Assembly: GCA_965222805.1 (NCBI GenBank)
Contig: CBDCUX010000005.1
Coordinates: 144,020 to 208,019 of the forward strand
Source: Candidatus Poribacteria bacterium
GTDB taxonomy: Bacteria; Poribacteria; WGA-4E; PCPOR2b
DNA: 64,000 bases
Direction of reading: 5' to 3'
The translations under genes and the position numbers were made by a program. The notes under the pieces were generated by a model, which had not been told where the DNA came from, made no database searches, and saw only the letters and a program-made list of their open reading frames with translations. This document shows positions 4,878 to 53,023 of this stretch, in pieces. Position 1 is the first letter of the stretch. Each line of letters begins with the position of its first letter.

Positions 4878-5030
4878 GGAAATAGGGAATTAAAGGATTG
4901 ACATACTCCCAAACCTAAAGGATTGGGATTCTCATCCTTTAGGATTCGAATTGCTCTATCAACAAAGTCAGCCCGACGAATTGGGACTTACAACTTCTCC
5001 TGAGAGGGTGGATGCCCCCACCCTATGGAT
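4878..5030 (-). ncRNA. Predicted omega-RNA (reRNA) of element 1, guide = flank 4897-4878 (UCCUUUAAUUCCCUAUUUCC)
   Basis: Overlaps the tnpB 3' end and right-end hairpin, as established for TnpB systems; 5' boundary approximate. Confidence 0.6.
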
Positions 5031-6095
5031 ATTGACCGCCGCATTGCGGTCTCTATCCAACTCTGTGTGGCAGCTTGGACACTGCCATGTTCTATCACGA
5101 AGGTTTAGGTCTTGGTTGATTGCACCACAGACATGGCAGGTCTTACTCGAAGGATACCACTTGTCTATGAATCGGATTTCCGTGCTTTTCTTCGAAGCGA
5201 TATACTTGAGTTTCTGCACAAAGTCAGAAAAACCTAAGTCAGAGACTTTGCGACCCCAAAGGGACTTCATGCCTTTGAGGTTGAGGGTCTCCAGTGAAAT
5301 CCAATCATATCTGTCTGTGAGGTCATGAGCAAGTTTCCAGTGGAAATCTTGCCTTTGGTTCGCAATCTTGCGATGTTTCTTTGCAAGGTTGACTCTTGCA
5401 CGTTGCCGATTCTTTGACCTTGCGACCTTTCGTGAATGGTTGCGATTGGCACGGTTGATAGTGTTGAGACCGCGCTTGAAGAATTGTGGAGAGTCGTAGT
5501 CATTGAAGCTAGACCCGGTGAGATACCTCTTTAGTCCAAAGTCCAACCCCGCGTTATTACCCGTCGTGGGCGACTCTAAATCGGTATCTACATAGTCTGT
5601 CAGAATGATTAGCCATACGTCTCCTACGCTGTCACGTTTTATCGTGCAGCGGCTCGGGGTGCCTAAGACTTCCCTACTTTTGAAATATCGGTAGATGCGT
5701 TTGCCAATACGGATAGAGTTGTTTTGTAGCAGTTTCCAACCGGCTTGCTTGAGGGTGTAGGACTTGTATAGTTTACGTCTCTTGAAACGGGGATGACCGG
5801 AACGCTTGCCGCTTTTGCGGTCAGTAAACAGTTTAGAGTACGCTTTATCAAGTCGGTCTATGACGTCTTGCAACGATTGACTCGGCAACTGATTCCAATG
5901 GGCAAAGCGGGGGAGTCGCTTCAACTTGGTTAAGTGTCGCATCAGTGCTTTCTTACCCGGATATGTCCCGTAGATAGCATAGTATCTGCGACACAACGCT
6001 ACAAAGTGATTCCATACTTCAGCATGGCTGTCAATCGTTTGCTGCAACTCACGATTAGTGTGGTTGCTATACATTTTGAACGTGTAGGTCTTCAC
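4968..6095 (-). CDS. tnpB: RNA-guided endonuclease TnpB
   Basis: RuvC triad GLDFGL / ISLETL / DRDRNAA, Zn finger CHVC...CPSC, PSSKTC; probable GTG start at 6095 (MKTYTFK), the ORF-track extension being the leader RNA. Confidence 0.93.
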   Translation of the reverse strand: MKTYTFKMYSNHTNRELQQTIDSHAEVWNHFVALCRRYYAIYGTYPGKKALMRHLTKLKRLPRFAHWNQLPSQSLQDVIDRLDKAYSKLFTDRKSGKRSGHPRFKRRKLYKSYTLKQAGWKLLQNNSIRIGKRIYRYFKSREVLGTPSRCTIKRDSVGDVWLIILTDYVDTDLESPTTGNNAGLDFGLKRYLTGSSFNDYDSPQFFKRGLNTINRANRNHSRKVARSKNRQRARVNLAKKHRKIANQRQDFHWKLAHDLTDRYDWISLETLNLKGMKSLWGRKVSDLGFSDFVQKLKYIASKKSTEIRFIDKWYPSSKTCHVCGAINQDLNLRDRTWQCPSCHTELDRDRNAAVNIHRVGASTLSGEVVSPNSSG

Positions 6096-6188
6096 GAGAT
6101 TGTCTTTCTGTCTTTCATGTCCTATGCTGTAGGAGGTAGGGGACACCGCCAAGCGACGGTGCAGCATTCCCCTACGAAAGACAAGACA
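6096..6188 (-). ncRNA. Conserved structured 5' leader RNA upstream of tnpB (copy 1)
   Basis: Homologous to 52708-52802 with compensatory changes; stems TTGTCTTTC/GAAAGACAA, GTAGGGGA/TCCCCTAC, CACCGTC-GCTT-GGCGGTG, CCTA-CAGCA-TAGG. Confidence 0.75.
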
Positions 6189-6217
6189 ATTATAATAGAC
6201 TTAGCCTACAAAATCAA
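6189..6217 (-). promoter_or_regulatory. Sigma70-type promoter of tnpB leader
   Basis: TTGATT-17 nt-TATAAT on minus strand; same position and spacing in element 2. Confidence 0.75.
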
Positions 6218-6335
6218 TACAAAAACGGCTGAAGCGAAACTTATATCCCAAAGATAAATCATTGGGCTTTACGGGCTAAAGCCCAACTCTGTAAAAAAGG
6301 TTGGAAAGGTTCTCCGCTTCCTCTCCTTCTAATCG

Positions 6336-7658
6336 TTAATGTTCGACTTCAAGATCGTCCCGATCCTTATCAGATCGGATCTTCATCGCCTCCGCATGTC
6401 CTTGAAGTCCCTCAACCTGAGCGAGTTTGACGACAGCCGGCGTGACCTTTTCCAACGCGGTTTTGGTATAGGAGATAACACTTGTCTTTTTTAGGAAATC
6501 ATCAACGCTCAACGGCGATGCGTACCGCGCCGCCCCACCCGTAGGCAAAATGTGATTGGGGCCGGCGATGTAATCACCGACAGATTCTGGAGTGTAAGGT
6601 CCTAGCATAATCGCTCCCGCATTACGGATGGCACCAACCCACTCGATTGGACTTTCTACCTCTAACTCCACATGTTCAGGTGCAATCTCGTTGGCGAGCT
6701 CCATCGCTTCGGTTAAATCTGCAACGATAAACGCCGCTCCGTAATTTTCAAAAGCACCGGTTAGTTCAGATTGGCGGGGCAGTTTTTGTGCCTGATGCTC
6801 AATTTCTGCACAAACCTGTTCCGCAATTTCTCTTGATATTGTAATAAGAATGGCAGAACATTCTACGCTGTGTTCTGCCTGCGAAATTAGGTCCGCTGCA
6901 ACATAGGCGGGATTTGCCGTGTGATCGGCAATAATGAGGACTTCGCTTGGACCCGCTAGCTTGTCAATATCGACGGGTCCATACACCTCTTTTTTCGCAA
7001 GTTGGACATACAGATTGCCCGGACCAACGATTTTATCCACTCTCGGGATGGTGCTCGTCCCATACGCCATCGCACCAACTGCTTGGGCACCACCACATCT
7101 GTAAATCTCACGGACCCCACATGCAGATGCGGCGAAAAGCATGTGCGGGTCAATCTGCCCATCTCGCATCGGTCCCATGAAGACCGCAATCTCCTCAACA
7201 CCCGCAACCTTCGCAGGGACAACATTCATTATTAACGAAGAAACCAGCAACTGACTCACCGACGGGACACATACGCCGACACGCCTTAGCGGACGGATGA
7301 GGTGTCCCAAAACAACGCCATCGGCCTCGGTAGACAGCCAAGAATTCCGCAGCTGCTTTTGGTGAAATCGCTCAATATTCGTCCGCGCAAGCTGGACCGC
7401 ATCGTGGAAGTCTGAATCGACCTGCGTGGAGGCACTCTCAATCTCTGCGTCTGTAACCCGTATCTCGTTGACAGACATCCGTGGAGCATCAAATCTGCGC
7501 GTATATTTAACGACGGCTCTGTCACCATTTCTTTGGACATCTTGCAAAATCCGCTGGACTGTCCTAAGAATACTTGGTTCTTCTAATCCCCCACGCAGAC
7601 TAAGTTTTTCGATGAAAGCCGCCGCTTCGTCCGAATGGGCATCAAGAATGATGATCAC
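6336..7658 (-). CDS. hisD: Histidinol dehydrogenase
   Basis: [48 protein letters not shown]; GTG start after GAGGA. Confidence 0.95.
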
Positions 7659-51461: not shown

Positions 51462-51630
51462 TCGTCAGTCCTCTGACTGCTCCCAAAGATAAATCTTTGG
51501 GGTTCTTAATAGACTTATTGGCAGACATTAGAATCTCCATGCTATTTTCTTGCTTCGACGGGACGTGCCCCGACAACCGAGGTCTTACCATCTCTCCACA
51601 AGCGTTTTACGTCTCCGTGTGTCCCATGGC
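51453..51630 (-). ncRNA. Predicted omega-RNA of element 2, guide = flank 51472-51453 (AGGACUGACGAAUGACGCUU)
   Basis: TAAAACGCTTGTGGAGAGATGGTAAGACC...GAAGCAAGAA after the tnpB stop, then right-end hairpin; 5' boundary approximate. Confidence 0.6.
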
Positions 51631-52707
51631 GACGTTTCTCAGGTTTATCGCAGCGTTGAGATCTCTGTCTTGCGTATGACCACACACACTGCAATGGTAG
51701 GTTCTATCTGATAAGGATAGGTTACTATCCATCACATTACAAGCCGAGCAAGTCTTACTAGACGGGTAGAAGGTATCTGCTTCTACAATCTTTACACCTA
51801 TCCGTTCTGCCTTGTATTTTAGCATAGACAGGAAACTCGACAACGAAGCGTCCGATAACGCCTTTGCAAGCCTATGATTCTTAAGCATACCTACAACATT
51901 TAGCGACTCAATCCCGATACGGCTTGCACTATTGATAATTACTGTGGACGCTTTGTGTTGTGCGTCCTGTCGAATACAGGTGATACGGTAATGTAGCTTG
52001 ACAAGCTTCGCTTGGGTCTTATGCCAATTACGACTGCCTGTTTCCCTTCGACTCAACTGACGTTGCAACCGCTTTAGCTTGCGCTCGTAACCCTTTAAGG
52101 CTTTCGGATTCTCGTAGTACACGCCTTCGGACGTGACCGCCAAGTGCTTGATACCTACGTCCACACCAACGACGGGGTGTTGTCGAATATCAGGTATTGG
52201 ATCGTCTTTGAATGTATCCACAAGAATAGCAGCGAACCAACGATGTCCATGCTTAGAGATAATGACCTTACAGATACTACCAAGGAAGCGAAGGGGTTCA
52301 CATAAGCGGACCCAACCAATTTTGGGAAGTTTTATACGCTGTCCTTCGACTTGGGTTTCTCCTTTGCCTGCAATCGCTTGGTAACTCTGACCATGGAACC
52401 GATTCTTGAACTTGGGAAAACGATTCTGACCTAACTGCCAACGACCTATAGCGTCCTTGAGGTTATTGTAGATAGCACATTTCGACACGGTTTGCGACAT
52501 ATCCTTAGCCCATGGGTACTTATCATATTTAACAGCGTTAAAGCGGTGTTGAAGGTCTATATGACTGTGCCAATCCCCTTTGGCTAAACCTGCTTTGAAA
52601 TCGGCTAAGGCATGATTGTAGGCAACACGGGTGTAACCACAATGTTGAGCAAATTGGGTTGCCTGAACGTTGTTCGGATCTAACGCTATCTTATGAGTTT
52701 TTAACAT
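51607..52707 (-). CDS. tnpB: RNA-guided endonuclease TnpB
   Basis: N-terminal HTH (HKIALDPN...YNHAL), LPKIG, GVDVGI / GIESLN / DRDLNAA, CSAC...CSVC. Confidence 0.95.
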   Translation of the reverse strand: MLKTHKIALDPNNVQATQFAQHCGYTRVAYNHALADFKAGLAKGDWHSHIDLQHRFNAVKYDKYPWAKDMSQTVSKCAIYNNLKDAIGRWQLGQNRFPKFKNRFHGQSYQAIAGKGETQVEGQRIKLPKIGWVRLCEPLRFLGSICKVIISKHGHRWFAAILVDTFKDDPIPDIRQHPVVGVDVGIKHLAVTSEGVYYENPKALKGYERKLKRLQRQLSRRETGSRNWHKTQAKLVKLHYRITCIRQDAQHKASTVIINSASRIGIESLNVVGMLKNHRLAKALSDASLSSFLSMLKYKAERIGVKIVEADTFYPSSKTCSACNVMDSNLSLSDRTYHCSVCGHTQDRDLNAAINLRNVAMGHTET

Positions 52708-52802
52708 TGGGGTTGTCTTTCCGTTTATCGTTTCCTATGTCGTAGGGTGTAGGGGACTCTACCAAGCGGTAGAGCGACATTCCCCTACTGAAAGACAAGA
52801 CG
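52708..52802 (-). ncRNA. Conserved structured 5' leader RNA upstream of tnpB (copy 2)
   Basis: Homolog of 6096-6188; CTCTACC-GCTT-GGTAGAG, CCTA-CGACA-TAGG, same outer stems. Confidence 0.75.
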
Positions 52803-52831
52803 ATTATACCATACTTTGCCAAGAAAATCAG
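52803..52831 (-). promoter_or_regulatory. Sigma70-type promoter of tnpB leader
   Basis: CTGATT-17 nt-TATAAT with extended -10 TG. Confidence 0.75.
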
Positions 52832-53023
52832 ACAAAATTACCGTGTTGGACCCAAAGCTAAAGCATTGGGATTGTTGCTAGTTAGCCTTCAGTCAGCAAA
52901 AACATACCCCATATCTGATTTTAACGGGGACAAATCCTGAAACTTTAGGGCAACATTATACGCCGAAGCAGAAAGGGTGTAAAGGGGAAATTAGACGCAG
53001 CTTTCTACCCCCCCTAGATCCAC

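Follow-up and report, generated by a model that had tools for sequence, protein, structure and literature searches.

A pseudoknotted leader RNA with tandem closing strands precedes tnpB and other nuclease genes in Candidatus Poribacteria

In a 64,000-nt stretch of the genome of a Candidatus Poribacteria bacterium (GenBank assembly GCA_965222805.1, contig CBDCUX010000005.1, positions 144,020 to 208,019; hereafter the window), two insertion sequence (IS) elements each carry a tnpB gene preceded by a structured leader RNA of about 85 nt. The leader consists of a closing helix (P1), a long arm (P2/P2b) with a 6-nt bulge, a short hairpin (P3) and a pseudoknot that joins the bulge to the P3 loop, and ahead of the gene the 3′ strand of P1 occurs as two tandem copies. 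On balance, we favour the view that the motif is a cis-acting, bistable 5′ leader that controls translation and is carried with its own promoter as a portable cassette before selfish nuclease genes, mostly tnpB.

Results

Architecture and covariation of the leader

Both leaders lie on the minus strand, where an earlier note on this DNA had placed a structured leader RNA shared by two divergent tnpB genes (Table 1). Copy 1 ends 4 nt ahead of the GTG start codon at 6095, and copy 2 ends 5 nt ahead of the ATG at 52707. The two leaders and their promoter regions are approximately 80% alike on alignment, whereas the TnpB proteins encoded downstream are only 27% identical, as divergent as the note had described them. 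The compensatory differences that it had listed are real, both in the inner hairpin (CACCGUC/GGCGGUG versus CUCUACC/GGUAGAG) and between bulge and loop (AUGCUG/CAGCAU versus AUGUCG/CGACAU). Compared with shuffled sequences, the fold z-scores were −5.2 for copy 1 and −5.0 for copy 2, and none of 200 shuffles equalled either.

Covariation was assessed in a MAFFT alignment of nine copies from the same genome and in a set of 49 distinct sequences aligned to a covariance model, which comprised 33 pairs and 1578 cells and was scored by five measures. Among the nine copies, 92.5% of cells pair, as against 41–50% with slid partners, and 16 pairs have changed on both sides, a number reached by none of 500 shuffles. 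In the larger set, 92.6% of the cells pair (43–46% with slid partners), both-side changes occur in 32 of the 33 pairs, and none of 500 shuffles matched on any of the five measures. The pseudoknot had been left out of the covariance model, yet all six of its pairs covary and are 82% paired in the 49 sequences. An alignment-free check gave the same picture: the bulge and its own loop form a run of at least 6 bp in 59 of 73 unique instances, versus 22% with swapped loops, and these 73 instances hold 53 distinct 5′ pseudoknot strings. P1 is nearly invariant inside the genus of the window, and in other classes it is wholly exchanged together with its partner (GTATCACGT/ACGTGATAC, GTATTGCT/AGCAATAC, ATCCTTCCC/GGGAAGGAA and CAGCATGGT/ACCGTGCTG). 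The earlier note had offered weak covariation across more homologs as grounds for abandoning its RNA model; the covariation found is strong, and its claim of a structured, strand-consistent element with a covarying pseudoknot is thereby borne out. G.U pairs outnumber A.C cells by 73 to 41, which points with moderate strength to the sense strand.

No junction, bulge or other unpaired nucleotide was conserved across the sequence classes compared. The junction segment between P2 and P3 (J2/3) reads AC, CU, AU, AG, UC or UA, and that between P3 and P1 (J3/1) ranges in length between 1 and about 13 nt. The lack of a conserved unpaired nucleotide argues against a small-molecule pocket or a catalytic core.

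Tandem 3′ strands of P1

The tandem duplication of the P1 3′ strand reads GAAAGACA-GAAAGACAA in copy 1, and other instances carry ACGGATA-ACGGATAT, CTTGATG-CTTGATAT, AGCAATAC...AGCAATAC or GGAAGGA-GGGAAGGAA. To count such repeats, the 9-nt 5′ strand was compared with a 55-nt region, a site being defined as at least 6 contiguous pairs, and 5′ strands swapped between dissimilar instances served as the control. At least two separate complementary sites were found in 63 of the 73 unique instances, versus 11% in the control, and tandem sites were present in 15 of 18 unrelated P1 sequence classes. Both 3′ copies change along with the 5′ strand, so that both pairings appear to be under selection.

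In the class that precedes tnpB, the distal 3′ strand ends 3–8 nt ahead of the start codon, and in three loci (L079, L110 and L124) the distal site itself contains the ATG. When either pairing was forced in folding calculations for the 63 instances, the median difference between the conformers was 0.2 kcal/mol (range −10.3 to +9.3), the distal pairing being better in 24, equal in 6 and worse than the proximal in 33; in copy 1 both conformers are predicted at −39.7. The near equality of the two predicted energies suggests that the leader is bistable. In the genus of the window, the P1 5′ strand UCUUUC resembles the 3′ tail of 16S rRNA (CCUCCUUUCU), and the 3′ copies are weakly Shine-Dalgarno-like. 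The 3′ copies of other classes are not, which indicates that occlusion, rather than sequence, is conserved.

Promoter and predicted transcript start

In copy 1, a sigma-70-type promoter (TTGATT-17 nt-TATAAT) is the sole promoter-like site on either strand within 5950–6350. Copy 2 carries an extended −10 element (TGgTATAAT), and no −35 element there passed the promoter scan; the promoter geometry that the earlier note had considered common to both leaders is therefore firm for copy 1 and limited to the extended −10 in copy 2. Across the family, 61 of 64 instances outside the sigma-54 class described below have a −10 hexamer that agrees with the consensus at 5 or more of its 6 positions. It lies exactly 4 nt ahead of the model match in 49 of these 61, and 39 carry TGn. 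This spacing places the beginning of P1 at about +1. A start 6–8 nt past the −10 hexamer would land on modelled P1 bases 2–4, a position that fits the poor pairing of the outermost P1 pair (unpaired in 18 of 48). The 5′ end of the transcript is thus predicted to be base-paired without an overhang. Contigs assembled from RNA libraries (four sponge metatranscriptome runs) cover 6086–6298; such contigs cannot show the start, end, strand or level of a transcript, and no significance is attached to their lower summed depth over 6157–6277.

Three other readings of this region were considered and rejected. An upstream ORF beginning at the AUG of AUGAAAG is contradicted by many copies, and by entire classes, that have ACG, AUC, AUU or no counterpart there. 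An N-terminal extension of tnpB from the in-frame ATG at 6167 would begin in the variable pseudoknot strand and is out of frame in copy 2. An extended P1 using bases upstream of the −10 box, as in a read-through transcript, is seen in copy 1, but the other classes have no second 5′ copy.

Size and distribution of the family

Two covariance models were built, R1 from the nine own-genome copies and R2 from 51 aligned matches. The number of copies recognised in the genome of the window rose from about 16 by DNA search to 28 with R1 and 30 with R2. R1 matched 48 of 151 Poribacteria genomes, and R2 matched 99 of them at E ≤ 1e-4. By family, R2 matches were present in 23 of 25 genomes of f1, 5 of 10 of f2 and 70 of 100 of f3, and in none of 15 from six further families. 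In all, roughly 850 Poribacteria matches were obtained, so that the motif has hundreds of copies across three families of this phylum.

The closest relatives of the window's TnpB proteins are encoded at Candidatus Poribacteria loci. Among 80 TnpB loci drawn from all prokaryotes, R1 matched 12, of which 11 were from Poribacteria and one from an “uncultured bacterium”; all 12 matches are on the sense strand and end 6–51 nt ahead of the TnpB match. Once the filters were switched off, weak matches at the same place appeared in 12 more of 21 Poribacteria loci, and in several others the architecture can be recognised by eye. None of the other 46 TnpB loci, which are not labelled Poribacteria, was matched by R1, and five whole genomes from other phyla that encode 46–50% identical TnpBs gave no match better than E 0.08. 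In those genomes tnpB directly follows tnpA or has an unstructured leader. The Poribacteria leader lies between promoter and start codon, where these relatives have tnpA, in agreement with the suggestion of the earlier note that it occupies the tnpA slot. Its presence in Poribacteria, and not with TnpB relatives of other phyla, indicates that the motif follows the host lineage and not the TnpB lineage.

Rfam 15 gave no match at the gathering score in the whole window or in nine related loci, and around copy 1 only two chance-level matches, both elsewhere, appeared at E up to 10. The earlier note, which knew of no named RNA family at this position and would have given up novelty on an Rfam hit, stands in this respect. 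A full-text literature search, the scope of which ended short of the supplementary motif lists of large RNA-discovery papers, found no description of the motif. A structured leader that restrains a transposon gene is a known kind of element. As far as checked, what is new is the motif family itself, its pseudoknotted junction, the tandem alternative strands, the restriction to Poribacteria and the sharing among unrelated nuclease genes.

Gene contexts and modularity

All 30 R2 matches in the genome of the window are sense to a gene. Twenty-five precede tnpB, which is intact in 21 (362–409 aa) and truncated or a remnant in four, at a distance of 4–8 nt, and the TnpB clades served in this way are only 27–40% identical. 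Conversely, 24 of 34 matches to the TNB domain in this genome carry the motif upstream. Among the ten that do not, three have the same IS ends as copy 1 and about 50 unrelated bases in place of promoter and leader, with no −10 box evident ahead of the ATG. These three mobile copies indicate that the motif is not needed for mobility. In the other motif-less loci, one has the left-end hairpin directly ahead of the ORF, one follows another ORF, one is N-terminally truncated and one is a fragment. The last three of the ten are TNB frames of 550–577 aa (C5:2778460, C5:4268757 and C5:4880289), far longer than other TnpBs. The genome also holds ten matches to the Y1 transposase domain (PF01797), five of which cluster within 40 kb (C5:2400183-2438269).

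The motif is not confined to tnpB. Two genes of about 300 aa with a GIY-YIG domain, 5 kb apart on the 141-kb contig C1, each carry their own promoter and the motif (C1:96536-96615 and C1:91203-91282, minus strand; L047). The pseudoknots of the two C1 leaders differ and both pair (AUGUCAC/GUGACAU versus AUGCUAU/AUAGCAU). Their P2 and P2b are near letter-for-letter those of a TnpB leader class, which indicates cassette exchange between gene types. The remaining three own-genome matches (C5:1087441, C5:2136131 and C5:2826842) have no tnpB; upstream of them stand a gene for a sigma-54 activator and a TGGCAC-N5-TGC promoter. Members of this sigma-54 class were found at L049, L051, L073–L078, L170, L175, L180, L185 and L190, with the motif at about 1501–1585 in each. 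The class is GC-rich, is followed by approximately 130 conserved non-coding bases, reaches 7 copies in one genome and gave no Rfam match. It may represent a set of small RNAs or leaders that depend on sigma-54.

Twenty-eight loci were sampled from five Poribacteria genomes of other genera. Eighteen precede TnpB ORFs, one a remnant, five belong to the sigma-54 class, and four are short elements without tnpB (L169, L179, L189 and L194; L194:1465-1840) composed of a promoter, the motif, about 270 non-coding bases and an end hairpin, CCCCTACC-TTTAGG-TAGTGGG. The last may be miniature, non-autonomous derivatives in which the leader and the guide-RNA region have been retained.

Host elements in the window

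The IS that carries copy 1 is one of six near-identical copies in the genome, the flanks of which diverge right after TTAC on the left and after ...GGAGTATGTCAA on the right. A contig from an RNA library of a related strain connects 4897 with 6315, and 21 letters of other sequence separate the two positions. From its left end inward, the element presents a terminator-like hairpin, a CCCAA-N10-TTGGG hairpin, the promoter, the leader and tnpB, the GTG start of which aligns with the ATG of an 89%-identical relative. The terminator-like hairpin recalls the left-end terminator of IS200, which blocks incoming transcription. Copy 2 lies in an element present once in this genome. Its left end starts with TGAAGGCTAAC after unrelated flanks, and its right end finishes with ...GCAGTCAGAGGA. 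The earlier note had described the two elements as having different ends. Their outermost bases and flanking motifs do differ; a CCCAA-N10-TTGGG hairpin, however, stands at all four ends, so that the two elements share their end hairpins. This hairpin is probably the subterminal one recognised by TnpA. In one IS of the copy 1 family (C5:1576713-1576796; L007/L038), the promoter and the P1 5′ strand have been lost by a deletion between two GTAGG repeats, and the tnpB contains a stop codon.

Table 1. Coordinates of the IS elements, leaders and related features (window positions, or contig positions where a prefix is given)
Feature	Position	Strand	Basis or remark
IS200/IS605-family element, copy 1, tnpB only, 1393 bp	4898..6290	minus	flank divergence among six copies
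TTAC, target/transposon-adjacent motif, copy 1 left end	6291..6294	minus	last shared bases of six copies
Left-end hairpin 1, copy 1, GGGCTTTA-GCCCG-TAAAGCCC, terminator-like, then T-rich run	6261..6287	minus	terminator-like site in scan
Left-end hairpin 2, copy 1, CCCAA-N10-TTGGG	6247..6266	minus	by sequence
Sigma-70-type promoter, copy 1, TTGATT-17 nt-TATAAT	6189..6217	minus	promoter scan, 10/12 matches
Leader RNA motif, copy 1	6100..6184	minus	covariance-model match; P1, P2/P2b, P3 and pseudoknot
Copy 1, P1 5′ strand	6184-6176	minus	
Copy 1, P2 5′ strand	6175-6168	minus	
Copy 1, pseudoknot 5′ strand (bulge)	6167-6162	minus	
Copy 1, P2b hairpin	6161-6144	minus	
Copy 1, P2 3′ strand	6143-6136	minus	
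Copy 1, P3 with pseudoknot 3′ strand in loop	6133-6121	minus	
Copy 1, proximal P1 3′ strand	6116-6110	minus	
Copy 1, distal P1 3′ strand	6108-6100	minus	
tnpB, copy 1, 375 aa, GTG start	4968..6095	minus	Pfam OrfB_IS605 and Cas12f1-like_TNB
Right-end hairpin, copy 1, CCCAA-N10-TTGGG	4908..4927	minus	
IS element, copy 2, single copy in this genome	51469..52891	minus	ends set against two 91%-identical relatives in other Poribacteria genomes
Left-end hairpin, copy 2, CCCAA-N10-TTGGG	52851..52870	minus	
Extended −10 element, copy 2, TGgTATAAT	52803..52811	minus	by sequence
Leader RNA motif, copy 2	52713..52798	minus	
Copy 2, P1 5′ strand	52798-52790	minus	
Copy 2, P2 5′ strand	52788-52781	minus	
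Copy 2, pseudoknot 5′ strand	52780-52775	minus	
Copy 2, P2b hairpin	52774-52757	minus	
Copy 2, P2 3′ strand	52756-52749	minus	
Copy 2, P3 with pseudoknot 3′ strand	52746-52734	minus	
Copy 2, degenerate proximal repeat	52729-52721	minus	
Copy 2, distal P1 3′ strand	52721-52713	minus	
tnpB, copy 2, 366 aa, ATG start	51607..52707	minus	Pfam HTH_OrfB_IS605, OrfB_IS605 and TNB
Right-end hairpin, copy 2, CCCAA-N10-TTGGG	51482..51501	minus	
Motif-less copies of the copy-1-ended IS	C5:6616249, C5:1603133, C5:5093676		TNB positions

Discussion

The favoured reading and what weighs on it

The motif fits between a −10 box and a start codon, keeps a fixed sense orientation, shows an excess of G.U pairs and is absent from mobile copies of the same IS, from which we infer that it acts as RNA and not as DNA. 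Its effect on translation would follow from the two alternative pairings. Transcription would begin at about the first paired base of P1, and the RNA would fold into a compact three-way junction in which the 6–7 bp pseudoknot ties P2/P2b and P3 side by side. The 5′ end could then close the junction by pairing with either of the tandem 3′ strands. Proximal pairing would leave the distal strand and the start codon free and allow translation, whereas distal pairing would bury the ribosome landing site or the start codon and block it. Folding kinetics, temperature or ions, or a host factor are candidate triggers of this balance. Because a paired 5′ end can stabilise an mRNA against decay that depends on the 5′ end, the fully paired 5′ end of the leader may also shield, and possibly stabilise, the message.

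Several observations weigh against this interpretation. The antisense strands also fold well (z −3.9 for copy 1 and −4.4 for copy 2), so that fold energy alone cannot tell the strand, and the excess of G.U over A.C is only moderate. The 49-row alignment was fitted to the nested helices of the model, which flatters those helices, though not the pseudoknot. Fewer than two complementary sites were found in 10 of the 73 instances (one site in nine, none in one), the proximal 3′ strand of copy 2 is degenerate, and the conformer energies leave out the pseudoknot. The putative transcription start is placed by −10 spacing, and the RNA data are assembled contigs. Most members of the sigma-54 class have about 45 nt in front of the motif and no start codon within approximately 25 nt past it, and in the GIY-YIG leaders the Shine-Dalgarno-like AAGGTGG or GAAGGAG lies past the distal repeat. 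In view of these two contexts, occluding the start directly cannot be all that the leader does, and they leave room for a trans-acting or protein-binding role.

Alternative explanations

A related explanation, to which we give a minor but appreciable share of belief, is that the motif is the sensing domain of a bistable riboregulator that answers a host signal, such as a Poribacteria-specific protein, an ion or temperature, and that unrelated selfish nucleases (several TnpB clades and GIY-YIG endonucleases) took it over from sigma-54-dependent host transcripts or hold it in common with them. If this is true, the host would hold one common handle on the expression of its mobile nucleases.

The compact fold, with z near −5, the high copy number and the presence of up to 7 copies per genome inside sigma-54-driven transcripts without an adjacent ORF start would suit a leader that persists, whether by cleavage or by accumulation, as a stable small RNA acting in trans or as a sponge for proteins. 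PMC5435999 describes such a precedent, in which the 5′ part of the IS200 tnpA mRNA in Salmonella also acts in trans. The tnpB class, however, has neither a terminator nor a conserved 3′ end after the motif, and its variable parts differ between copies, so that no common target sequence is evident. We consider this alternative improbable.

It is somewhat less probable still that the leader senses a specific small molecule, as the aptamer of a classical riboswitch does, and switches through P1. The architecture would suit such a sensor: P1 could close the junction as a switching helix, the pseudoknot would supply the tertiary contact, and the alternative pairings, which exclude each other and adjoin the start codon, link an aptamer-like helix to an expression signal. 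An invariant unpaired pocket is missing, as the unconserved junction and bulge nucleotides, the variable J2/3 and J3/1 and the 53 pseudoknot strings show, and the genes downstream encode nucleases and not metabolic or transport functions.

The earlier note had also suggested that TnpB or TnpA might regulate its own expression through the motif, or that the motif might serve as a second RNA partner. The motif's place ahead of 24 of 34 own-genome TNB genes, and its adjoining only TnpB in 18 of the 28 loci sampled from five other Poribacteria genomes, agree with a TnpB binding site or partner RNA. Yet one motif serves TnpB clades that are just 27–40% identical and stands ahead of GIY-YIG genes and sigma-54 loci without tnpB, while it is absent from the 46 TnpB loci not labelled Poribacteria, from the five genomes with 46–50% identical TnpBs and from three mobile copies of the same IS. 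Moreover, its position some 100 nt in from the left end leaves it unable to hold a guide derived from the flank. Both proposals of the note accordingly lose ground, and we regard this possibility as unlikely, slightly more so than the riboswitch.

The pseudoknotted junction fold and the link to mobile nucleases, including the GIY-YIG genes, suggest a small ribozyme that cleaves itself at the left end and thereby trims transcripts reading through it, in line with the ribozyme-like module of the same note. We think it very unlikely. The models of known ribozymes (hammerhead, twister, pistol, hatchet and HDV-like) gave no match at the gathering score, no Rfam ribozyme family matched around copy 1 even at E up to 10, conserved core nucleotides are absent across the classes, and a promoter directly upstream makes 5′ trimming needless for most transcripts.

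Least probable of all is a folded single-stranded DNA used in transposition, or a REP-like DNA repeat. In its favour, IS200/IS605 elements move as top-strand single strands, and here the top strand has the sense orientation; DNA, moreover, tolerates G.T wobble, and the antisense strand folds too. Against it, the hairpins common to both ends are other sequences located elsewhere (6247–6266 and 4908–4927). The motif is absent from right ends and from three copies that have the same ends and moved recently, and the limits of the motif follow the −10 box and start codon and not the ends of the element. Finally, all 30 own-genome and all 12 TnpB-locus matches are in the sense orientation, with none of the random orientation or context of a REPIN that the earlier note had named as a sign against its RNA model.

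Comparison with known systems and significance

Cas12 descends from TnpB nucleases, which have found wide use as compact genome editors. To our knowledge, little has been reported on the natural control of TnpB expression beyond the processing of the 3′ guide RNA. That guide, the omega RNA (also termed reRNA), is encoded in the same elements as the leader and is likewise structured and pseudoknot-bearing; IS605-orfB families are reportedly named in the Rfam 15 paper. It differs in that it lies at the 3′ end of tnpB, where it spans the right end of the element and draws its guide from the flanking DNA, whereas the leader is 5′, about 100 nt inside the left end: in copy 1 the motif (6184–6100) is upstream of the tnpB start at 6095, and the right end is at 4898.

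The purine and THF-I riboswitch aptamers are also three-way junctions with a switching P1 and arms held by tertiary pairs. The leader has two tied arms and a putative switching P1 as well, but it lacks a conserved pocket, does not adjoin metabolic genes and matches nothing in Rfam. In the mRNAs of IS10/IS50 and hok, 5′ pairings over the start region silence toxic or selfish genes, and folding pathways choose the active or inactive form. Unlike the leader, those pairings form plain helices and include neither a conserved pseudoknotted domain nor decoy strands in tandem.

The large and well-supported family described here would place a pseudoknotted junction with tandem decoy and occluding strands at the 5′ end of tnpB messages, and it is a candidate new entry for RNA family databases. 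Because the motif tracks the host lineage and is swapped between unrelated nuclease genes, it points to host-adapted expression cassettes as a unit of exchange among mobile elements in an uncultured symbiont phylum, the Poribacteria in question being symbionts of sponges.

A close parallel in layout is the tnpA 5′ untranslated region (5′UTR) of IS200 in Salmonella and E. coli, which belongs to the same transposon family. There, too, the left end presents in order a terminator-like hairpin, a promoter and a structured 5′UTR. In IS200 a helix of this 5′UTR covers the ribosome-binding region, and an alternative unpaired form has been proposed (PMC4513863). The Poribacteria leader likewise stands in the left end, after the element's own promoter and ahead of the start codon. 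Its distal P1 strand ends 3–8 nt short of the start codon or includes the ATG in the tnpB class, though not in the sigma-54 and GIY-YIG classes. Neither sequence comparison nor Rfam related the leader to that of IS200, and no antisense promoter like that of art200 was found in copy 1 within 5950–6350. IS200 combines a simple long stem-loop before tnpA with the antisense small RNA art200 and Hfq, whereas the leader described here sets a three-way junction, a covarying pseudoknot and tandem alternative 3′ strands before tnpB.

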